In this document: positions 1 through 8,083 of the stretch, in pieces | Numbering within the stretch: the stretch's first letter is position 1 | Layout: each line of letters opens with the position of its first letter | IMG/VR virus record: IMGVR_UViG_2695420847_000016 | Span: 1-8,083 of that record | Length of the DNA: 8,083 nucleotides | Strand: one strand, 5' to 3' | Source of the DNA: a virus | Taxonomy: Duplodnaviria; Heunggongvirae; Uroviricota; Caudoviricetes | The notes under the pieces: generated by a model | Databases searched by the model: none | What the model was told of the DNA's origin: nothing | What the model saw: only the letters and a program-made list of their open reading frames with translations | Program-made: the position numbers and the translations under genes

Positions 1-500
1 CGCGTCGTTCTCTGGGATTACCGGCGGAAAAAATCCGCTCCGTATACCGTGAAAGCGACATCATACCGGGAGAACAGACCGCCACCAGCATACTGAAGCA
101 GCGCACAAAAAATATTGCGCTACCGCCTCACACCCACCAGCAACAGAACCCACCACAGGAAAAGACGGTGGTCAGCATTGCCGTTGATCCGGAGTCTCCG
201 GAATCCTTCATGAAACGACCTAAACGTCGCCTCTGGGTAAATGAGAAATACACACGCTGGGTAAAGACACAGCCGTGTGCGTGTTGTGGTAAGCCAGCGG
301 ACGATCCTCATCATCTGATTGGTCATGGTCAGGGTGGAATGGGAACAAAATCCCACGATATTTTCACGCTACCGCTGTGTCGGGAGCATCACAACGAGCT
401 TCATGCGGATCCGCTGGCGTTCGAAGAAAAGCATGGTTCCCAGGTTGATTTAATTTTTCGTTTTCTTGATCACGCTTTTGCAACCGGCGTGCTCGGGTAA
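1..500 (+). CDS. Phage zinc-finger protein of the YdfU/YbcO (DUF968/DUF1364-like) type; 5' end lies outside the window
   Basis: The frame is open from base 3 to TAA at 498-500; the ORF track shows only the internal GTG at 168. The C-terminal part has a Cys/His pattern (CACCGKP...HH...GTK...CREHH). The gene sits directly upstream of rusA, as in lambdoid nin regions. Family assignment is from motif and context, not a search. Confidence 0.6.
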   Translation, partial: RRSLGLPAEKIRSVYRESDIIPGEQTATSILKQRTKNIALPPHTHQQQNPPQEKTVVSIAVDPESPESFMKRPKRRLWVNEKYTRWVKTQPCACCGKPADDPHHLIGHGQGGMGTKSHDIFTLPLCREHHNELHADPLAFEEKHGSQVDLIFRFLDHAFATGVLG

Positions 501-512
501 AAGAGGTTACTG

Positions 513-884
513 ATGCGTATAGAGTTTGTTTTGCCTTACCCGCCGACGGTGAACACCTACTGGCGACGTCGTGGCAGCACATATTTTGTATCAAAAGCCG
601 GTGAGCGTTATCGCCGGGCTGTGGCGCTTATTGTTCGCCAGCAGCGGCTGAAATTAAGCCTGTCCGGACGGCTGGCAATAAAAATTATTGCAGAACCACC
701 GGATAAGCGCCGCCGTGACCTGGACAACATTCTGAAAGCACCGCTGGATGCGCTGACGCATGCGGAAGTGCTCATTGATGACGAGCAGTTTGATGAAATC
801 AATATTGTGCGCGGTCAGCCTGTGCCAGGTGGACGGCTGGGCGTGAAGATTTACGAAATCAGAGGTGGTAACGATGGCGCGTGA
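513..884 (+). CDS. rusA: RusA Holliday-junction resolvase (crossover junction endodeoxyribonuclease)
   Basis: 123-aa ORF with AAGAGG 5 nt upstream of ATG 513. The protein has the RusA-type acidic core ([20 protein letters not shown]) and length matching E. coli RusA. Confidence 0.88.
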
Positions 885-1245
885 TATCCAGATGGTTCTT
901 GAGCGATGGGGGGCATGGGCAGCAAATAATCATGAAGATGTAACATGGCCCTCGATAGCTGCTGGTTTTAAAGGATTAATCCCGACTAAAGTGAAATCAC
1001 GTCCTCAGTGTTCTGATGATGACGCCATGATAATTTGTGGTTGTATGGCACGATTAAACAAGAATAATCAGTATTTGCACGATTTGTTGGTGGATTATTA
1101 CGTAGGTGGAATGACATTTATGGCTCTTGCACGTAAGCATAGATGTTCTGATGGGCTTATTGGTAAAAGGCTTTATAAAGCGGAAGGTATTATTGAAGGA
1201 ATGCTTATGGCTCTGAATGTCCGGTTAGATATGGATATGCGGTAG
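874..1245 (+). CDS. Late-gene antiterminator Q, short (about 125 aa) Q family as in DLP12-type prophages
   Basis: ATG 874 is preceded by AGAGGTGG (861-868) and overlaps the rusA stop (ATGGCGCGTGA). The sequence [25 protein letters not shown]...CGCMARL matches my memory of QuuD-like Q proteins. The track start GTG 865 is probably too far upstream. Confidence 0.8.
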
Positions 1246-1336
1246 GGATATATAGTGATGAGGGTTATGTTTTCTGTGTTTATAATTAACATGTTTATTT
1301 TTTGATGGTCATGTATTGTGGAAGGTAGATAAAATG

Positions 1337-1365
1337 TTGCCTGGTGAATTGAAAATATTGATAAT
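1337..1365 (+). promoter_or_regulatory. Candidate sigma70 promoter (TTGCCT-N17-GATAAT) in the AT-rich spacer between Q and the CPBP gene
   Basis: Hexamer match with 17-bp spacing, about 30 nt upstream of the CPBP ribosome-binding site. It could be the PR'-equivalent late promoter or a cargo promoter. Sequence match only. Confidence 0.25.
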
Positions 1366-1396
1366 CAATCTTCATCATTAAATAAAAGGAGTGCTT

Positions 1397-2215
1397 ATGT
1401 GGATTGTGTTAGTACTGTCACTGTCAACTCTCAGTTGGCATAAGGTAGTGGCTTTTTCATTGTTGACGGTGTCTGTTGTCCTGGCTGTGCTTAATGATAT
1501 TATTGATTGGTCGGTGTTATTTTTTGTTGCTACAATCGTTTTTTTTATTATTTTGAAGTTCAACTGGAAATATAACGCCTGGGCTAAATCTATATATGAA
1601 GTTGGCATAGTTTTATCAGCCATAGCATTATCTTTCCATCTATGGCCAGGGTTTCACAATCCTGTAGTGCTAAATTCTGTTACTGTTGGCCCTCAAAGTA
1701 CTCCCTATACAATGTATTTTAATTTTGATAAAGCGCTGGTGCCATTTTTGTTAGTCCTGTGTACATCTTCTTTGTTTAAAAAAGAAGTAAAATCAGAAGT
1801 GTCTTTGTGGAAGTGGGGGGCTCTGTCGCTCTCTGTTCCTCTTATCCTGTTTTTGGCTGTTTTTTTTGGTGGATTAAAGCCAGAGATTCATTTTCCTGAG
1901 TGGTTGCCAGAGTTTATATTGGCTAATTTGTTTTTTGTGTCTCTGGCAGAGGAATCATTATTTAGAGGGTATATTCAATCACGGCTATCAGAAGTAACGT
2001 CTCCATTGGTTGCATTAATTGTGGCGGCTTTGTTGTTTGGTTTTTATCACTATTCAGGTGGTGCTTTACTTGTATTATTTGCCACGTTATCTGGTGTTGT
2101 GTATGGATTGTCATGGATGTGGAGTGGGCGTTTGTGGGTTGCCACCCTTTTCCATTTTGGTTTGAATCTGTGTCACTTGTTATTCTTTACCTATCCATTT
2201 TTAAAACATAATTGA
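1397..2215 (+). CDS. CPBP-family (CAAX protease / Abi domain) intramembrane metalloprotease
   Basis: AAGGAG (1386-1391) lies 5 nt before ATG 1397; the track start GTG 1391 is 2 codons upstream. The protein is a multi-pass hydrophobic protein with all three CPBP motifs: EExxxR (LAEESLFRGY), FxxxH (FGFYHY) and HxxxN (HFGLNL). The gene is markedly AT-rich compared with the rusA/Q backbone. Confidence 0.8.
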   Translation: MWIVLVLSLSTLSWHKVVAFSLLTVSVVLAVLNDIIDWSVLFFVATIVFFIILKFNWKYNAWAKSIYEVGIVLSAIALSFHLWPGFHNPVVLNSVTVGPQSTPYTMYFNFDKALVPFLLVLCTSSLFKKEVKSEVSLWKWGALSLSVPLILFLAVFFGGLKPEIHFPEWLPEFILANLFFVSLAEESLFRGYIQSRLSEVTSPLVALIVAALLFGFYHYSGGALLVLFATLSGVVYGLSWMWSGRLWVATLFHFGLNLCHLLFFTYPFLKHN

Positions 2216-2295
2216 TTTTTTCTATGGTTTTAAATTTATAAGACTGAAAAATAGCAGGACGTGACATTTGCATGAAAAATATGCACGGCAAAGCA

Positions 2296-2309
2296 TTTAC
2301 GTACGTAAA
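2296..2309. promoter_or_regulatory. Perfect 14-bp palindrome TTTACGTACGTAAA, candidate operator
   Basis: Exact reverse-complement symmetry, in the intergenic region between the CPBP gene and the small winged-helix ORF. Function is inferred only. Confidence 0.2.
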
Positions 2310-2356
2310 AAATCAGGTATGCTGTTAAGAGTGGTTATTTCGCCGCATAGCTTGAC

Positions 2357-2378
2357 CCCGCCTCTGAGCGGGTTTTTT
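2357..2378 (+). terminator. Intrinsic terminator downstream of the CPBP gene
   Basis: CCCGC-CTCTGA-GCGGG hairpin followed by TTTTTT. Confidence 0.5.
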
Positions 2379-2501
2379 GTGCCCGCAAAGTAGCGCAGTG
2401 CGTTAAATGTGCTGGTAGTTATTAATACAGGTCTTTCAGCTTGCTGGCTTTTTCGGCAAGAGTTATTGGTGTGTCACGTTAACCGGAAAGGGTAAAAAGA
2501 C

Positions 2502-2699
2502 ATGCTGAAACAGCAGGATATGACAGAAACCGCCAGAGTTGTGTTTGATGAATTAAGCGTCACCGAACCGGCGACAGTCGGGGAGATTGCGCAGAATACT
2601 TACCTTTCACGCGAACGCTGCCAGTTAATACTGACCCAGCTTGTTATGGCGGGTCTGGCAGACTATCAGTGCGGTTGTTACAGACGCCTTCAGTCCTGA
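2502..2699 (+). CDS. Small winged-helix DNA-binding protein, PapI/FaeA-like (65 aa)
   Basis: ATG 2502 has a GGAAAGGG purine tract upstream. The segment TVGEIAQNTYLSRERCQLILTQLVMAGLA resembles the PapI/FaeA recognition helix region. Only the last ~49 nt are repeated in the second module (4573-4621), so the intact gene is unique to module 1. Confidence 0.5.
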   Translation: MLKQQDMTETARVVFDELSVTEPATVGEIAQNTYLSRERCQLILTQLVMAGLADYQCGCYRRLQS

Positions 2700-2770
2700 A
2701 GGCTTTTTTATTTGTGGTAAATGGGCGGCTGGTGGGTGTTAGCGGCACCTGTCAGTCCTTTGCTTATGTG

Positions 2771-2801
2771 TTGATGATAATTTACCTTTTGGGGCTATAA
2801 T
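2771..2801 (+). promoter_or_regulatory. Candidate promoter for the AraC-family gene (TTGATG ... TATAAT, 19-bp spacer)
   Basis: Perfect -10 hexamer TATAAT at 2796-2801 and a TTGATG -35-like hexamer at 2771-2776. Spacing is suboptimal. The same motif is conserved in copy 2 at 4690-4720. Confidence 0.25.
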
Positions 2802-2836
2802 TGAACTAACCAATTGCTAATGAAAGTAAAATTATA

Positions 2837-3550
2837 ATGGTTGTTGTCTGTTCAGTTATCATGGTTTGCTCCCCAATTAATATTTTTCTTGAAAAGGATA
2901 CGTTGTCACTTAAGCCCGGCTCAGTCGTTCTGGCCACCAAATGCATCAGGGCGCTTTTCCTTATGCATTATGGCAAAGTTAAAATTTTCGATATAAACCA
3001 TTCCATAGTAAGTCAATATCTGGAAATTCAGCATAAGCTGACAAGAACTCATCTGACTGACGTTCCGCTTTATCTGTCACTGGAACCCAACAACCCTGCG
3101 TTGGCTGAGGCTTTAATTACCAGCCAGAGATTTTCCGGAGATACCACGGATATGTTTCTTATGATGGCATGCCTGTCGCTGTTTGAATCAGATGAACGGA
3201 TATTATTATTTTTAAGTGGATGTTTATCCAGTATAAGTACCAAAGTCAGGGCGATAATTCAGACAGATATATCAGCAAGCTGGACGCTTGGTGCGATTGC
3301 GTTACGCCTGCATATGAGTGAGAGTTTGTTAAAGATAAAACTGAAAAATGAAGGGCACATGTTCAGTCGCTTGTTGCTGGAAGAGCGGATGCGTGTTGCT
3401 GTGAATATGTTATGTTCCCGGCATGGATATGGACAGGCTGTAGCAGAAAAATGCGGTTATTCAAGCTGGTCCTACTTTATTTCTGTATTTCACCGCTATT
3501 ATGGCTTCCCGCCAGACAGATATGTATCCAGGCAAGGGCTTGATTATTGA
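2837..3550 (+). CDS. AraC/XylS-family transcriptional regulator (prophage-encoded, paralog 1)
   Basis: 237-aa ORF with a C-terminal double HTH typical of AraC family (WTLGAIALRLHMSESLL ... YGQAVAEKCGYSSWSYFISVFHRYYGFPPDRY). AT-rich. The start could instead be ATG 2861. Confidence 0.8.
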   Translation: MVVVCSVIMVCSPINIFLEKDTLSLKPGSVVLATKCIRALFLMHYGKVKIFDINHSIVSQYLEIQHKLTRTHLTDVPLYLSLEPNNPALAEALITSQRFSGDTTDMFLMMACLSLFESDERILLFLSGCLSSISTKVRAIIQTDISASWTLGAIALRLHMSESLLKIKLKNEGHMFSRLLLEERMRVAVNMLCSRHGYGQAVAEKCGYSSWSYFISVFHRYYGFPPDRYVSRQGLDY

Positions 3551-3578
3551 TTTTCATCTGATTATTATTTTTTGACCC

Positions 3579-3654
3579 GGCCCTTTAGCTCAGTGGTGAG
3601 AGCGAGCGACTCATAATCGCCAGGTCGCTGGTTCAAATCCAGCAAGGGCCACCA
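3579..3654 (+). tRNA. ileZ: tRNA-Ile2 (anticodon CAU, lysidine type), 76 nt with encoded CCA
   Basis: Cloverleaf built by hand: acceptor GGCCCTT/AAGGGCC, D-stem GCTC/GAGC, anticodon loop CTCATAA, T-loop TTCAAAT. Close to E. coli ileX rather than elongator tRNA-Met. The symbol is by analogy with the Stx-phage tRNA cluster. Confidence 0.8.
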
Positions 3655-3661
3655 TCACATA

Positions 3662-3738
3662 CCGCCATTAGCTCATCAGGAAAGAGCGCCAGCTTTCGAA
3701 GCTGGTTGCGCGGAGTTCGGGTCCCCGAAGGCGGTCCA
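3662..3738 (+). tRNA. argN: tRNA-Arg (anticodon UCG), copy with stem and T-loop irregularities
   Basis: Anticodon loop TTTCGAA between the CCAGC/GCTGG stem. It carries an A-A mismatch in the acceptor stem, an A-C mismatch in the T-stem, and T-loop TTCGGGT (G at the usually conserved A58). It may be impaired. The symbol is by analogy only. Confidence 0.6.
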
Positions 3739-3751
3739 TTATCTGTATCCT

Positions 3752-3828
3752 GCGTTGTTAGCTCAGCCGGACAGAGCAATTGCCTTCTAAGCAATCGGTC
3801 ACTGGTTCGAATCCAGTACAACGCGCCA
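3752..3828 (+). tRNA. argO: tRNA-Arg (anticodon UCU), canonical copy
   Basis: Acceptor GCGTTGT/ACAACGC, anticodon loop CTTCTAA, T-arm ACTGG-TTCGAAT-CCAGT, encoded CCA. Resembles E. coli argU-type tRNA. Confidence 0.85.
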
Positions 3829-3842
3829 CACTTATTTTCCCT

Positions 3843-3868
3843 GGCTCGCTTTTGCGGGCCTTTTTTTT
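3843..3868 (+). terminator. Intrinsic terminator after tRNA cluster 1
   Basis: GGCTCGC-TTTT-GCGGGCC hairpin (one G-U pair) followed by a run of 8 T. Confidence 0.6.
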
Positions 3869-3933
3869 AAATATCTCACAATTCAGGCGGTTGACTGTTG
3901 TCTGGTTTGCGGGGAGTTTGTTAAAAGAAACTG

Positions 3934-4041
3934 GCATGGTGAATCCCCCTGTGCGGAGGGGCGATCAGCAACCAGGTATATGGGATAATCGCGGATTCAG
4001 GTGCTGATACTGAATTCACCGGGAGGCACCCGGCACCATGC
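3934..4041. repeat. 108-bp dyad-symmetric element, copy 1 (100% identical to 6548-6655)
   Basis: Base-by-base comparison shows the two copies are identical. Ends are inverted repeats GCATGGTG...CACCATGC, with internal inverted repeats GGTGAAT/ATTCACC and CCCCT/AGGGG. Flanking sequences are only loosely similar. Confidence 0.8.
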
Positions 4042-4101
4042 TTTGCCACAAAAGTGTTGTTTCTGTTTTTCTCAAACTATCATCGTTATCCCTTTATTTC
4101 C

Positions 4102-4128
4102 GGCTGCGCATGGCGTGGCCTTTTTTTT
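4102..4128 (+). terminator. Intrinsic terminator upstream of the nanS-p fragment
   Basis: GGCTGCGC-ATG-GCGTGGCC hairpin with two wobble pairs, followed by 8 T. A related hairpin recurs at 6800-6825. Confidence 0.45.
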
Positions 4129-4214
4129 ACGACCAGCCACTGGCAGATGGCCATCCTGTAATTTGATTCCGGTTCCGGCTTTTTAACTCTGTTCCTGTAC
4201 ACGGGAGAAATTCG

Positions 4215-4739
4215 ATGTCGATTAAACATTATGATGTTGTCAGGGCGGCGTCGCCGTCAGACCTTGCGGAAAAGCTGACACATAAACTGAAAGAGGGCTG
4301 GCAGCCGTTTGGTAGTCCGGTGGCCATAACCCCTTATACCCTGATGCAGGCGATTGCAGCAGAAGGTGATGTGGTGGTCAGTGGTGCAACTGAGCCGGAG
4401 TGGTACTACGTCATCGTACTGGCCGGGCAGTCCAATGCCATGGCTTACGGTGAAGGGCTTCCGCTGCCGGATTCATACGATGCTCCGGATCCGCGTATTA
4501 AACAGCTGGCGCGCCGCAGTACAGTGACGCCGGGTGGGGCTGCCTGCAGATATAACGATATTATTCCGGCACGGGTCTGGCAGACTATCAGTGCGGTTGT
4601 TACAGACGCCTTCAGTCCTGAAGGCTTTTTATTTGTGGTGAATGGGCGGCTGGTGGGGGGGCGACACCTGTCAGTCCTTTGCTTATGTGTTGATGATAAT
4701 TTACCTTTTGGGGCTATAATTGAGCTAACCAATTGCTAA
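4215..4739 (+). pseudogene. nanS: 5' fragment (about 119 codons) of a nanS-p-type sialate O-acetylesterase gene fused out of frame to the edge of module copy 2
   Basis: The N-terminal sequence is near-identical to the ORFs at 6922 and 7548 up to ...RYNDIIPA (through nt 4570). From 4573 the DNA is the repeat also found at 2651 onward, so the ORF tail (RVWQTISAVV...) is read-through of sequence that is noncoding or in another frame in copy 1. Confidence 0.6.
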
Positions 4740-4755
4740 TGAAAGTAAAATTATA

Positions 4756-5469
4756 ATGGCTGTTGTCTGTTCAGTTATCATGGTTTGCTCCCCAATTAAT
4801 ATTTTTCTTGAAAAGGATACGTTGTCACTTAAGCCAGGCTCAGTTGTTCTGGCCACCAAATGCATCAGGGAGCTTTTCCTTATGCATTATGGCAAAGTTA
4901 AAATTGTCGATATAAGCGAATCCGTCGTAAGTCAATATCTGGAAAGTCAGCATAAGCTGACGAGGACTCGTCTGACTGACATTCCGCTTTACCTGTTGCT
5001 GGAACCCAACAATCCTGCGTTGGCTGCGGCTTTAATTACCAGCCAGGGATTTTCCGGAGAGGCCACGGATATGTTTCTTATGATGGCCTGCCTGTCTCTG
5101 TTTGAAACAGATGAACGGATGTCATTGTTTTTAAGTGGATGTTTATCCAGCATAAGTGCCAAAGTCAGGGCGATAATTCAGACAGATATATCAGCAAGCT
5201 GGACGCTTGGTGCGATTGCTCTACAGTTGCATATGAGTGAGAGTTTGTTAAAGACAAAACTGAAAAATGAAGGGGGCATGTTCAGTCGCTTGTTGCTGGA
5301 AGAGCGGATGCGTGTTGCTGTAAATATGTTATGTTCCCGGCATGGATATGGACAGGCTATAGCAGAAAAATGCGGTTATTCAAGCAGGTCCTACTTTATT
5401 TCTGTATTTCACCGCTATTATGGCTTCCCGCCAGACAGATATGTATCCAGGCAAGGGCTTGATTATTGA
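4756..5469 (+). CDS. AraC/XylS-family transcriptional regulator (paralog 2)
   Basis: 237 aa, same length as paralog 1, with 23 amino-acid differences by manual alignment. 17 of these fall in the N-terminal 135 residues. Confidence 0.8.
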   Translation: MAVVCSVIMVCSPINIFLEKDTLSLKPGSVVLATKCIRELFLMHYGKVKIVDISESVVSQYLESQHKLTRTRLTDIPLYLLLEPNNPALAAALITSQGFSGEATDMFLMMACLSLFETDERMSLFLSGCLSSISAKVRAIIQTDISASWTLGAIALQLHMSESLLKTKLKNEGGMFSRLLLEERMRVAVNMLCSRHGYGQAIAEKCGYSSRSYFISVFHRYYGFPPDRYVSRQGLDY

Positions 5470-5497
5470 TTTTCATCTGATTATTATTTTTTGGCTC

Positions 5498-5573
5498 GGC
5501 CCTTTAGCTCAGTGGTGAGAGCGAGCGACTCATAATCGCCAGGTCGCTGGTTCAAATCCAGCAAGGGCCACCA
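5498..5573 (+). tRNA. ileZ: tRNA-Ile2 (anticodon CAU), second copy
   Basis: Identical in sequence to 3579-3654. Confidence 0.8.
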
Positions 5574-5582
5574 TATTACATA

Positions 5583-5659
5583 CCGCTATTAGCTCATCGG
5601 GACAGAGCGCCAGCCTTCGAAGCTGGCTGCGCGGGGTTCAAGTCCCCGATGGCGGTCCA
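5583..5659 (+). tRNA. argN: tRNA-Arg (anticodon UCG), canonical copy
   Basis: Acceptor CCGCTAT/ATGGCGG (one G-U pair), anticodon loop CTTCGAA, T-arm CGGGG-TTCAAGT-CCCCG fully paired, encoded CCA. Confidence 0.75.
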
Positions 5660-5672
5660 TTATCAGCATCAT

Positions 5673-5749
5673 GCGTTGTTAGCTCAGTCGGACAGAGCAA
5701 TTGCCTTCTAAGCAATCGGTCAGTGGTTAGACTCCACTACAACGCGCCA
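5673..5749 (+). tRNA. argO: tRNA-Arg (anticodon UCU), copy with atypical T-loop
   Basis: Same acceptor and anticodon arm as 3752-3828, but the T-arm is AGTGG-TTAGACT-CCACT. The stem change is compensatory; the loop has A in place of the conserved C56. Confidence 0.65.
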
Positions 5750-5762
5750 CACTTATTTTCCA

Positions 5763-5786
5763 GGCTCGCTTCGGCGGGCCTTTTTT
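5763..5786 (+). terminator. Intrinsic terminator after tRNA cluster 2
   Basis: GGCTCGC-TTCG-GCGGGCC hairpin followed by TTTTTT. Confidence 0.6.
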
Positions 5787-5918
5787 GTATCTGCGCCACG
5801 CCCGGCGCATATCAACCACAGAGCCTTTCGGGGGTGAGCTTACGGAGTGGTCAGTGTGACTTTCTCTGTGGGCAGATCGCTCCCGGGCGTTGGCTCACCC
5901 ACCCAAAGGAACGTCACG

Positions 5919-6350
5919 ATGTTTGGAATCTTCAAAAAGAAAACCCGCAGAGCGGCAGCGGAAATTAAAAAGTTTGAGAAACGCGATCTGGCACAGGCGG
6001 TGATTAACGCTGCATACCTGGTGGCCTATGCAGATGGTGAATGCGAGGCATCCGAGAAAGCGAAGATCGAACAGGTCTTACGTAATCAGCCTGCGTTGTC
6101 TGCGTTTACCTCGGAAATTAATGCGATTAGCGCAACCATTATCGGTCAGCTGGATACCAATTTTAAAATTGGTCGTCGTGCCGCGTTACGCGAGATTGAG
6201 GATGTGAAACACGATACGCGTGAAGCGGAAGATGTGCTGGATGTGGCGGTGGCCATTGCGGAGGCAGACGGCGAAATTGAGCCGGAAGAGCGCAAGGTGC
6301 TGGAAGAGATTGCCGGTGTTCTGGGTCTTCGTCTGGAGAATCACCTGTGA
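5919..6350 (+). CDS. TerB-family (tellurite-resistance TerB-like) protein, 143 aa
   Basis: ATG 5919 has AAAGGA 8 nt upstream; the track start GTG 5847 is probably not used. Two acidic DG-containing repeats (AYADGECEASEKAKIEQVL and AEADGEIEPEERKVLEEIAGVLGL) match the layout of plasmid TerB as I remember it. Confidence 0.7.
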   Translation: MFGIFKKKTRRAAAEIKKFEKRDLAQAVINAAYLVAYADGECEASEKAKIEQVLRNQPALSAFTSEINAISATIIGQLDTNFKIGRRAALREIEDVKHDTREAEDVLDVAVAIAEADGEIEPEERKVLEEIAGVLGLRLENHL

Positions 6351-6514
6351 CGGTAAAACTGCGCCTGGCTGTGGCTGCACTCCTGCTGTTTCTGGTGGTG
6401 ATGGTGGATCTCACCAGCAGAATCATGTCGGTGCTGGCGGATGGGGTGCTGGTCTGCGGCATTGTGGTATTGCTGTGGCCGGTGATAAAAAGAAACAGCC
6501 TGCATAATGCTTGA
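6347..6514 (+). CDS. Hypothetical small hydrophobic protein (about 55 aa, two predicted membrane-spanning segments), translationally coupled to the TerB-like gene
   Basis: Not in the ORF track. GTG 6347 overlaps the TerB stop (GTGA) with GGAGA 7 nt upstream; an alternative start is ATG 6401. The frame runs to TGA 6512-6514 and encodes ...LRLAVAALLLFLVVMVDLTSRIMSVLADGVLVCGIVVLLWPVIKRNSLHNA. Confidence 0.35.
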   Translation: MTVKLRLAVAALLLFLVVMVDLTSRIMSVLADGVLVCGIVVLLWPVIKRNSLHNA

Positions 6515-6547
6515 TTTTTTTGTTTGCTGTTTATTAAAAACACTTCT

Positions 6548-6655
6548 GCATGGTGAATCCCCCTGTGCGGAGGGGCGATCAGCAACCAGGTATATGGGAT
6601 AATCGCGGATTCAGGTGCTGATACTGAATTCACCGGGAGGCACCCGGCACCATGC
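6548..6655. repeat. 108-bp dyad-symmetric element, copy 2 (100% identical to 3934-4041)
   Basis: See copy 1. It lies 267 bp upstream of the nanS-p start at 6922. Confidence 0.8.
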
Positions 6656-6680
6656 AAGAAAAAGAATGTGCATGCAAACA

Positions 6681-6706
6681 TGCCCCTCTCCGGAGGGGCA
6701 TTTTTT
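6681..6706 (+). terminator. Intrinsic terminator
   Basis: TGCCCCTC-TCCG-GAGGGGCA hairpin (8 bp) followed by TTTTTT. Confidence 0.6.
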
Positions 6707-6712
6707 ATGGGT

Positions 6713-6737
6713 AAAAAATGCCCGAATGGGTTCGGGC
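6713..6737 (-). terminator. Possible minus-strand intrinsic terminator facing the one at 6681-6706
   Basis: GCCCGAA-TGGG-TTCGGGC hairpin with AAAAAAT on its 5' side on the + strand, which is a T-run on the minus strand. No minus-strand gene is evident to its right. Confidence 0.3.
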
Positions 6738-6799
6738 AATAGCATGAGATACTGATATTGTTGTGTTGTTATCGTGTGGATTTTAACCAGGGTTTATCA

Positions 6800-6825
6800 G
6801 GCTGCGCAACTGCGTGGCCTTTTTT
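6800..6825 (+). terminator. Intrinsic terminator in the nanS-p leader
   Basis: GGCTGCGC-AACT-GCGTGGCC hairpin followed by TTTTTT; a diverged homolog of the hairpin at 4102-4128. Confidence 0.5.
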
Positions 6826-6866
6826 CATTTCTTGGGCTGTAGTCCCCGTGTGTCATTCAGGCTTCC

Positions 6867-7492
6867 GGACTACAGCCCACTCCATATCTGATTTAATACA
6901 CTATCCCGGCCGGGAGGAATAATGACATTTAAACATTATGATGTTGTCAGGGCGGCGTCGCCGTCAGACCTTGCGGAAAAGCTGACACACAAACTGAAAG
7001 AGGGCTGGCAGCCGTTTGGTAGTCCGGTGGCCATAACCCCTTATACCCTGATGCAGGCGATTACAGCAGAAGGTGATGTGGTGGTCAGTGGTGCAACTGA
7101 GCCGGATTGGTACTACGTCATCGTACTGGCCGGGCAGTCCAATGCCATGGCTTACGGTGAAGGGCTTCCGCTGCCGGATTCATACGATGCTCCGGATCCG
7201 CGTATTAAACAGCTGGCGCGCCGCAGTACAGTGACGCCGGGTGGGGCTGCCTGCAGATATAACGATATTATTCCGGCCGACCACTGCCTGCATGATGTGC
7301 AGGATATGAGTACGCTGAATCATCCGAAGGCAGACCTGAGCAAAGGGCAGTACGGCTGTGTCGGCCAGGGCTTACATATTGCCAAAAAACTGCTTCCGTA
7401 TATCCCGAATAACGCGGGGATCCTGCTGGTACCATGCTGTCGTGGTGGTTCGGCATTCACCCAGGGCGCGGAGGGGACATTCAGTGCGGACA
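6867..7492. repeat. Tandem duplication unit 1 (626 bp: 55 bp of leader plus the first ~190 codons of nanS-p)
   Basis: The sequence from 6867 recurs from 7493 with a constant offset of 626 bp to the window end. At least four single-base differences were seen, for example at 7205/7831, 7250/7876, 7268/7894 and 7396/8022. Confidence 0.85.
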
Positions 7493-7548
7493 GGACTACA
7501 GCCCACTCCATATCTGATTTAATACACTATCCCGGCCGGGAGGAATAA
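6922..7548 (+). pseudogene. nanS: nanS-p-type sialate O-acetylesterase, N-terminal 190 codons ended by the tandem-duplication junction (208-codon ORF)
   Basis: GGGAGGAATA lies before ATG 6922. The protein has a DUF1737-like N-terminus and the start of an esterase domain with a GQSN motif (VLAGQSNAMAYGEG). After ...TFSAD the frame runs into the duplicated leader (RTTAHSISDLIHYPGREE, stop). Confidence 0.55.
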
Positions 7549-8083
7549 TGACATTTAAACATTATGATGTTGTCAGGGCGGCGTCGCCGTCAGACCTTGC
7601 GGAAAAGCTGACACACAAACTGAAAGAGGGCTGGCAGCCGTTTGGTAGTCCGGTGGCCATAACCCCTTATACCCTGATGCAGGCGATTACAGCAGAAGGT
7701 GATGTGGTGGTCAGTGGTGCAACTGAGCCGGATTGGTACTACGTCATCGTACTGGCCGGGCAGTCCAATGCCATGGCTTACGGTGAAGGGCTTCCGCTGC
7801 CGGATTCATACGATGCTCCGGATCCGCGCATTAAACAGCTGGCGCGCCGCAGTACAGTTACGCCGGGTGGGGCTGCATGCAGATATAACGATATTATTCC
7901 GGCCGACCACTGCCTGCATGATGTGCAGGATATGAGTACGCTGAATCATCCGAAGGCAGACCTGAGCAAAGGGCAGTACGGCTGTGTCGGCCAGGGCTTA
8001 CATATTGCCAAAAAACTGCTCCCGTATATCCCGAATAACGCGGGGATCCTGCTGGTACCATGCTGTCGTGGTGGTTCGGCATT
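7493..8083. repeat. Tandem duplication unit 2 (partial; runs off the window)
   Basis: See unit 1. Confidence 0.85.
7548..8083 (+). CDS. nanS: nanS-p-type sialate O-acetylesterase (prophage paralog), 3' end outside the window
   Basis: ATG 7548 overlaps the TAA of the truncated copy (TAATGA). The reading frame is open to the window end, and the sequence is ~99% identical to 6922-7457. Confidence 0.7.
   Translation, partial: MTFKHYDVVRAASPSDLAEKLTHKLKEGWQPFGSPVAITPYTLMQAITAEGDVVVSGATEPDWYYVIVLAGQSNAMAYGEGLPLPDSYDAPDPRIKQLARRSTVTPGGAACRYNDIIPADHCLHDVQDMSTLNHPKADLSKGQYGCVGQGLHIAKKLLPYIPNNAGILLVPCCRGGSA

Follow-up and report, generated by a model that had tools for sequence, protein, structure and literature searches.

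Lambdoid and Shiga toxin (Stx) phages of Escherichia coli carry a cluster of three tRNA genes, ileZ-argN-argO, first named in phage 933W. In the 933W GenBank record (NC_000924), from which the gene names used here are taken, the cluster lies at 21120-21371, between Q and stx2/nanS-p, preceded by a putative promoter (pT) and followed by a terminator. A Met(CAU)-Arg-Arg tRNA triplet is present between q and stx in all Stx2a, Stx2c and Stx2d phages analysed, and Stx2e phages carry only two tRNA genes, Met and Arg (PMC7366253). Here we describe a stretch of 8,083 nucleotides (nt) from the IMG/VR virus record IMGVR_UViG_2695420847_000016 (the window), in which such a triplet occurs twice in tandem, with different alleles of both Arg genes. 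Judged by alignment, each triplet is an ileZ-argN-argO cluster. The system is ordinary and already known, and only its tandem, heteroallelic arrangement here is a new instance. The best explanation as a whole, which we hold with good confidence, is that two pre-existing haplotypes of the cluster were joined head-to-tail and that argN is a weakly constrained gene.

The window triplets share with the 933W cluster their gene order, strand and spacing, and their position 3' of Q and 5' of the nanS-p/lysis genes. On alignment to 933W, ileZ is 100% identical, argN and argO show few differences, and the spacers and terminator are homologous. Promoter-like sites in the window hold the same relative position as pT, which suggests the same function. 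Unlike 933W, the window contains two clusters in tandem, each preceded by a gene for an AraC-like regulator, and no stx gene follows them; cluster 1 is instead followed by an STnc100-family small RNA (sRNA) element and a truncated nanS-p, and cluster 2 by TerB and DUF3927 genes. The anticodons of ileZ and argO, and presumably their decoding (AUA and AGA/AGG), are shared with the K-12 genes ileX/ileY (tRNA-Ile2, with lysidine at position 34) and argU (UCU), respectively, but ileZ and argO are distinct genes of phage origin. To our knowledge, K-12 has no tRNA-Arg(UCG) counterpart of argN.

The six tRNA genes and their cloverleaves

ARAGORN finds exactly six tRNA genes in the window, all on the plus strand and arranged as two triplets (Table 1), which confirms the duplicated triplet reported in a first-pass annotation of the letters alone. 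All six score above the Rfam tRNA gathering threshold of 29 bits, with E-values of 1e-6 to 8e-15. The second intergenic spacer is 13 nt long in both clusters, and the first is 7 nt in cluster 1 versus 9 nt in cluster 2. The two CAU genes show zero differences, as that annotation had also stated. ARAGORN, judging by the anticodon alone, labels them Met; in thousands of genomes, RM12581 and CB9615 among them, the Prokaryotic Genome Annotation Pipeline (PGAP)/RefSeq types this same sequence as tRNA-Ile. Aligned to the Rfam tRNA model, the gene has C4-G69 and C5-G68, which are determinants for TilS, and it is presumably a tRNA-Ile2 that reads AUA after lysidine modification. The ileZ of the bovine E. 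coli strain E2863 (our locus L123, 6826-6901) has T at position 3 and scores 69.4 versus 72.5 bits.

The 77-nt Arg genes (here argN1 and argO1 in cluster 1, argN2 and argO2 in cluster 2) were laid onto the standard cloverleaf and compared position by position. In argN1 there is one mismatch in the acceptor stem (A6·A67) and one in the T stem (A52·C62), and the T-loop is UUCGGGU, with G at position 58. In argN2, 21 of 21 stem pairs are standard, one of them a U5·G68 wobble, and the T-loop is UUCAAGU. The argO1 gene is fully canonical (T-loop UUCGAAU). In argO2 the T-loop is UUAGACU (A56, C59), pair 50:64 is changed from C50-G64 to G50-C64, and position 16 is U; its 21 stem pairs are all standard, and A56 precludes the G19-C56 tertiary pair. 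These are the features that the first-pass annotation had read in the two isoacceptors, namely acceptor- and T-stem mismatches with G58 in Arg(UCG) of cluster 1 and a canonical copy in cluster 2, and a canonical Arg(UCU) in cluster 1 with loss of C56 and a swapped T-stem pair in cluster 2, and each was found as described. Although argN1 departs from the canonical cloverleaf and T-loop pattern (U54, U55, C56, A58), it lies above the 29-bit Rfam threshold and is annotated as tRNA-Arg by PGAP. The identity elements for arginyl-tRNA synthetase (ArgRS) are A20, C35, and G36 or U36. All four Arg genes have A at position 20 (D-loops AUCAGGAAA, AUCGGGACA, AGCCGGACA and AGUCGGACA) and UCG or UCU anticodons; the ArgRS identity positions and the CCA end are thus kept in all four.

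Unconstrained minimum-free-energy folding misses the cloverleaf even for canonical argO, and cannot separate argO1 from argO2; the energy of the imposed cloverleaf was therefore used. This is -20.0 kcal/mol for argN1 versus -29.0 kcal/mol for argN2, and -22.0 kcal/mol for both argO1 and argO2. The argN1 cloverleaf sits 9 kcal/mol above the minimum-free-energy fold of the same gene, in which the T arm is not formed. The Rfam scores follow a similar division. Among argN alleles, argN2 scores 56.0 bits, the 933W allele 54.8, an allele with G58 only (RM12581) 54.0, and argN1 42.9. Among argO alleles, the canonical argO1 scores 70.1 bits, the 933W allele 68.1, the allele with T-loop UUCGACU that is parental to argO2 (RM12581) 67.3, and argO2 itself 66.7. 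The view that both Arg variants are atypical is therefore upheld by score for argN1, but not for argO2, which lies close to its C56 parent and to 933W. By these computations, only argN1 among the window alleles would be clearly impaired. The anticodon loop of the 933W argO (L125, 4296-4372) carries G37.

Source haplotypes and junctions of the tandem

Each triplet belongs to a larger repeated module. In self-BLAST, 2650-3869 and 4572-5789 align at 93.7% identity over 1,222 nt, which corresponds to 6.3% divergence, whereas single-copy clusters elsewhere match each copy at 99.75% identity or more. Module copy 1 is 99.8% identical to the single-copy loci L014 and L067, and the surrounding 1-4050 is 99.7% identical to L014, a single-copy IMG/VR prophage, and 99.0% identical to a single-copy prophage of O55:H7 strain CB9615. 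Module copy 2 is 99.75% identical to the single-copy cluster of E2863, and 4572-7492 is 98.3% identical to L121. A further repeat relates 4202-4570 to 6911-7277 (97.3%, self-BLAST). The core of the STnc100 element, 108 nt, is 100% identical in its two occurrences (3934-4041 and 6548-6655), the first of which is without the 3' terminator hairpin of the family model. The best-matching prophage lineage of the left unit switches inside this core, which looks like a point of homologous crossover.

The alleles in the two modules are standing variants in E. coli. Exact argN1 occurs in 560 of 5,426 complete genomes, including O157:H7, O55:H7, O111:H8 and O103:H2 strains, and its allele family in 988, mostly once per genome. 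Exact argN2, the "canonical" form, is found in only 100, and exact argO2 in 76 (e.g. O111 and O103 strains, and E2863, where the cluster is single-copy). Among the matches listed, all of those to argN1, argN2 and argO2 are annotated as tRNA-Arg, and no pseudogene flag was seen in the two regions inspected (CB9615 for argN1, E2863 for argO2). By these counts argN1 is the commonest argN allele in E. coli, and argO1 is the commonest argO allele in our survey (38 of 91).

The history of argO2 can be read from its relatives. An IMG/VR allele with UUCGACU, G50-C64 and U16 differs from argO2 at position 56 only, where it has C, and the argO of RM12581 has the same T arm (UUCGACU, G50-C64) and differs only at positions 16 and 56. 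Since the stem swap occurs with C56 elsewhere, the compensated swap predates C56A and is unrelated to it. We rejected the idea that the T-stem swap compensates C56A, as prophages such as that of RM12581 have the swap together with C56. We also rejected a sequencing error confined to the window as the source of C56A, given that the allele is exact in 76 complete genomes. The A56 form of argO is a minor allele, one point mutation away from a recurrent allele with a compensated T-stem swap.

The modules meet at a junction (J1, 4571|4572) that fuses nt ~357 of nanS-p to the 3' end of an open reading frame (ORF) of 65 amino acids (aa), with only the letters GGC shared. A second head-to-tail join (J2, 7492|7493), 2.9 kb from J1, creates a 626-bp repeat of the nanS-p 5' region. 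Its two units differ at 4 of 591 nt (7203, 7233, 7251 and 7395), and the repeat leaves a 208-aa ORF with DUF1737 only (6922-7548), followed by a fresh nanS-p start. No match spanning J1 was found by BLAST in the 5,426 complete E. coli genomes, and an exact search gave 0 matches in IMG/VR, GTDB species representatives and JGI metagenomes. For J2, BLAST against the 5,426 genomes gives no contiguous match, only two-piece matches over the unduplicated 626-bp unit. No locus with two copies was seen among the 116 IMG/VR loci recovered by exact ileZ. From these comparisons the tandem is best described as a juxtaposition of two older haplotypes, produced either by a private illegitimate-recombination event or by an assembly artefact. 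In the former case, haplotypes that are single-copy in different prophages would have been joined by the illegitimate J1 join at GGC, together with homologous exchange in the STnc100 core.

The most serious rival is the latter case, in which the contig is a chimera or mis-join of at least two co-resident lambdoid prophages that share this region, and no prophage has a duplicated cluster. STEC (Shiga toxin-producing E. coli) genomes hold many near-identical copies of the region, in up to 14 places per genome, and the window is a patchwork whose segments have their best matches in different prophages. J1 is absent from every collection searched, and the two nearby unique junctions keep an artefact in play. 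Mosaicism, however, is normal for lambdoid prophages, and the reading frames and the promoter-like and terminator-like signals of both modules are intact. Assembly mis-joins normally fall inside shared repeats, whereas J1 and J2 join non-homologous sequence with 2-3 nt of microhomology, which is more typical of real illegitimate recombination; the minimal microhomology at the junctions therefore favours a real event. We consider a chimera unlikely, but by some way the least unlikely of the alternatives.

Constraint on argN and codon demand

The second part of our explanation, weak constraint on argN, draws on the state of the three genes in other prophages. The complete genomes contain 7,527 ileZ-like places (in 3,057 genomes), 5,760 argO-like places (in 2,288 genomes) and, by blastn with 11-nt words, 4,142 argN-like places (in 1,758 genomes). 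Genomes with argO have a median of 2 copies and up to 11, and ileZ reaches 12 copies. A survey of 117 clusters anchored on exact ileZ shows the full Ile-Arg(UCG)-Arg(UCU) order in 59; argN is not detectable in 29, an argN-like body with a UUU anticodon arm followed by Thr(UGU) is present in 16, and a chimera of argN 5' and argO 3' sequence in 3. The argN1 type accounts for 15 of the 59 intact trios. These numbers are descriptive, as the IMG/VR loci and complete genomes are not independent and many represent the same prophage in related strains.

The altered argN slots take several forms. A separate motif count finds the argN anticodon arm replaced by unrelated sequence in 26 clusters, mostly within the 29 above; in these IMG/VR loci (e.g. 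L005, L011, L016, L019, L025, L028, L036 and L042) the arm reads …AGAGCAGACGACAC… and the acceptor and T arms remain. Such an argN would be an outright pseudogene beside intact ileZ and argO, and it appears to be the commonest state of the argN slot in the IMG/VR sample. In the 16 clusters with UUU (L006, L038, L039, L040, L052, L080, L086 and 9 others), the tRNA gene after ileZ has argN-like acceptor, D and T arms and is called Lys by ARAGORN; it looks like an anticodon-arm replacement in the argN slot. In L017, L041 and L081 there is a single chimeric gene with the argN 5' half, the argO 3' half and anticodon UCU, which ARAGORN no longer calls, and which was apparently made by deletion between the two Arg genes at shared anticodon-loop sequence.

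Within the 59 intact trios, a sample conditioned on ARAGORN still calling argN, the MAFFT-based nucleotide diversity is 0.070 for argN, 0.016 for argO and ~0.19 for the spacers and 3' flank. Non-standard pairs make up 3.5% of stem cells in argN versus 0.4% in argO, and the 50:64 swap of argO is the one compensatory substitution that is double-sided. The slot states, diversity and stem pairing consistently mark argN as the probable weakly constrained member of the trio.

Codon usage agrees with this. As baseline we took the 14,790 codons of 42 core genes in one 50-kb K-12 segment, with ATA at 2.4, AGA at 1.2, AGG at 0.7, CGA at 2.6 and CGG at 3.5 per 1000. In the two AraC-like genes ATA reaches 29.5 and 21.1 per 1000 (binomial p = 2e-6 and 3e-4), and AGA+AGG ~25 per 1000 versus 1.9 in the baseline; copy 1 contains 7 ATA, 3 AGA, 3 AGG and 0 CGA codons, and copy 2 contains 5 ATA, 1 AGA, 5 AGG and 0 CGA. 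For the AraC-like genes this is a 9- to 13-fold excess of ATA and AGA/AGG; for the window's other phage genes the excess is 5- to 7-fold. The gene for a CPBP-family protease has 4 ATA and 0 CGA codons, and in the remaining phage genes ATA (12.2) and AGA (9.2) are enriched and CGA (4.6) is not (p = 0.25). It had been proposed that the adjacent AT-rich genes visibly use the rare codons read by all three tRNAs; this is borne out for AUA and AGA/AGG, but CGA is absent or not enriched. The codon-supply idea thus fits ileZ and argO, and not argN. The same holds for the codon-compensation model for phage tRNAs (Bailly-Bechet, Vergassola and Rocha 2007, as cited in PMC7946995): the cognate codons of ileZ and argO are commoner in phage and cargo genes than in the host, whereas argN is a misfit and its slot is the decaying one. 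The codon misfit of argN agrees with relaxed constraint on the gene.

Taken with what is established for host and phage tRNAs and with the 933W annotation, these data suggest how the trio may work. Its transcripts would come both from a promoter of its own and from late transcription antiterminated by Q, and its tRNAs would be processed like host tRNAs. They may supplement the scarce host decoders of AUA (ileX/ileY) and AGA/AGG (argU/argW), and so aid translation of AT-rich, horizontally acquired genes, such as the AraC-like regulators upstream and, in Stx phages, stx. CGA and CGG are read in K-12 by tRNA-Arg with the anticodons ICG and CCG. The argN tRNA, reading the same codons, may be largely redundant with this host capacity, and would therefore be weakly constrained and drift. 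As a STEC genome can hold several copies of the cluster, redundancy among prophages would let lesions in single copies, such as C56A, persist. On this evidence argN1, most likely a tRNA that is weakened or in decay, would hitch-hike with ileZ and argO.

It could instead be supposed that the atypical alleles are functional specialists, in which an altered elbow or T arm affects modification, stability or nuclease susceptibility, or provides a decoy or processing signal. The occurrence of exact argN1 and argO2 across serotypes is compatible with this, as are the retained ArgRS identity positions (by the identity rules given above) and CCA ends; the compensated 50:64 swap in the argO lineage shows selection on structure, and the diversity of argN is below that of the spacers. 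The changes in argN1, however, are all disruptive and 0 are compensated, its cloverleaf is 9 kcal/mol weaker, and its score is 11-13 bits under that of every other argN allele tested. In other prophages the argN slot is found at every stage of decay (destroyed anticodon arm, chimeras, loss), the exact allele is missing from 43% of the genomes with the argN1 family, versus 10% for ileZ, and there is no local cognate codon demand. We regard specialisation as improbable. A narrower form, in which argN1 is maintained by selection for a non-decoding role, as a decoy for anticodon nucleases directed at tRNA-Arg, as a substrate that resists them, or as a processing or regulatory element of the late transcript, seems to us a shade more improbable again; if true, a prophage with both alleles in tandem would gain both activities.

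Least credible of all is duplication in place followed by loss of a different tRNA-Arg in each copy, with selection keeping one intact isoacceptor of each type: the reciprocal defects, one canonical and one atypical Arg gene per cluster, suggest it, but the copies are too diverged from each other and too close to single-copy clusters elsewhere, both atypical alleles are widespread and the inspected clusters that carry them (CB9615, E2863 and the IMG/VR loci) are single-copy, no complete genome has the tandem junction, most clusters have an atypical argN or none (58 of 117 without the full trio, and argN1 in 15 of the 59 intact ones), and a genome may hold up to 11 copies of argO. These comparisons show that duplication followed by reciprocal decay is not the origin of the two copies. 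The reciprocal pattern in the window is a by-product of which two haplotypes were joined. The first-pass annotation had concluded that one intact isoacceptor of each type is "therefore kept" across the clusters; one canonical copy of each is indeed present, but the idea of retention finds no support, as both haplotypes predate the juxtaposition. With the argO copy numbers given above, redundancy is genome-wide and not specific to the two clusters of the window.

Some observations weigh against the juxtaposition of haplotypes and weak constraint on argN that we prefer. J1 and J2 occur in no other sequence searched, and the tandem may not be biological. Where argN survives it is ~3-fold less diverse than the spacers and hence not neutral, in a sample conditioned on detection. 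The presence of exact argN1 in 560 genomes could be explained by selection just as by hitch-hiking or clonal sampling, the IMG/VR loci and complete genomes share the non-independence noted above, and the codon baseline comes from a single 50-kb segment and not from the whole K-12 genome.

Gene neighbourhood and significance

Gene identities in the window were taken from Pfam and from annotated relatives (RM12581, E2863 and CB9615). Q places the window in the late-regulatory region of a lambdoid prophage, and the gene order (DUF968-RusA-Q-CPBP ... nanS-p) identifies that region, by homology, as that of a Stx-phage-like E. coli prophage (Table 1). A promoter-like and a terminator-like site are duplicated along with each triplet, these being consensus matches and not observed transcription signals. 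Fragments of nanS-p begin at 4215 and 6922 (Pfam).

Table 1. Features of the 8,083-nt window, in order of position
Feature	Position	Strand	Evidence
DUF968 C-terminus	upstream of RusA		Pfam/annotated relatives
RusA	513-884		Pfam/annotated relatives
Late antiterminator Q	865-1245	+	Pfam Phage_antitermQ, 175 bits; collinear with annotated Q of RM12581 and CB9615
CPBP/Rce1-like intramembrane protease gene, AT-rich cargo (GC 0.38)	1391-2215	+	Pfam PF02517, 70.6 bits
65-aa ORF	after CPBP gene, 5' of first AraC-like gene		
Module copy 1 (3' end of 65-aa ORF, AraC-like gene, tRNA promoter, triplet 1, terminator)	2650-3869	+	self-BLAST
AraC-family regulator copy 1 (PsrA/PsrB/PatE-like, 237 aa)	2837-3550	+	Pfam HTH_18/HTH_AraC
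Putative sigma-70-like promoter before triplet 1 (TTGATT-17-TATTAT)	3540-3568	+	consensus scan, 9/12
ileZ copy 1, tRNA-Ile2 (CAU), presumed	3579-3654	+	ARAGORN; Rfam 72.5 bits; same as 933W ileZ
argN copy 1, tRNA-Arg(UCG), atypical allele	3662-3738	+	ARAGORN; Rfam 42.9 bits
argO copy 1, tRNA-Arg(UCU), canonical major allele	3752-3828	+	ARAGORN; Rfam 70.1 bits
Predicted intrinsic terminator after triplet 1	3843-3860	+	hairpin and T-run; homologous to 933W post-argO terminator
STnc100-family sRNA element copy 1, without 3' hairpin	3905-4077	+	Rfam RF02076, 108.1 bits
Truncated nanS-p (DUF1737 N-terminus), crosses J1 into repeated 65-aa ORF 3' end	4215-4739	+	Pfam DUF1737
Module copy 2	4572-5789	+	99.75% identical to single-copy E2863 cluster (L123)
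AraC-family regulator copy 2	4756-5469	+	Pfam; 90.3% aa identity to copy 1
Putative sigma-70-like promoter before triplet 2	5459-5487	+	consensus scan, 9/12
ileZ copy 2 (CAU), same sequence as copy 1	5498-5573	+	ARAGORN; Rfam 72.5 bits
argN copy 2, tRNA-Arg(UCG), canonical cloverleaf	5583-5659	+	ARAGORN; Rfam 56.0 bits
argO copy 2, tRNA-Arg(UCU), A56 allele	5673-5749	+	ARAGORN; Rfam 66.7 bits
Predicted intrinsic terminator after triplet 2	5762-5781	+	hairpin and T-run
TerB-family (TciA-like) and DUF3927 (TciB-like) genes, cargo 3' of triplet 2	5919-6514	+	Pfam TerB; annotated in RM12581 and E2863
Full STnc100-family sRNA element	6519-6712	+	Rfam, 142.7 bits
AgvB anti-GcvB sRNA	6713-6774	-	Rfam RF02702, 96.5 bits; 62/62 positions equal to consensus
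nanS-p 5' region, 626-bp head-to-tail repeat (6867-7492, 7493-8083)	6867-8083	+	self-BLAST, 99.3%

The AraC-like proteins resemble PsrA, PsrB and PatE of enterohaemorrhagic E. coli O157:H7 in being 237-aa AraC-family proteins encoded by lambdoid prophages, a match made to the published descriptions. The window pair differs at 23 of 237 residues, giving the same 90.3% identity that has been published for PsrA and PsrB (PMC10877973). Unlike the tandem pair of the window, the O157:H7 paralogues sit in different prophages (OI-50 and OI-57).

AgvB directly abuts the full STnc100 element on the opposite strand, convergent with the STnc100 terminator. In 933W (L125), STnc100 (5778-5983, plus strand) adjoins AsxR (5985-6037, minus strand) in the same manner; the two anti-sRNAs, AgvB and AsxR, thus occupy the same slot.

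Beyond annotation the finding matters little: the tandem, if real, is a strain-level curiosity that involves no new mechanism. A single late region of such a prophage would combine six tRNA genes with two Psr/PatE-like regulators of acid resistance and virulence, and the dosage of both could rise slightly. More generally, duplicated genes in a mosaic prophage can seem to have decayed reciprocally when in fact old alleles have recombined. The population picture of the Stx-phage trio that emerges is one in which ileZ and argO are conserved, matching the codon demand of AT-rich cargo genes, and argN is dispensable.

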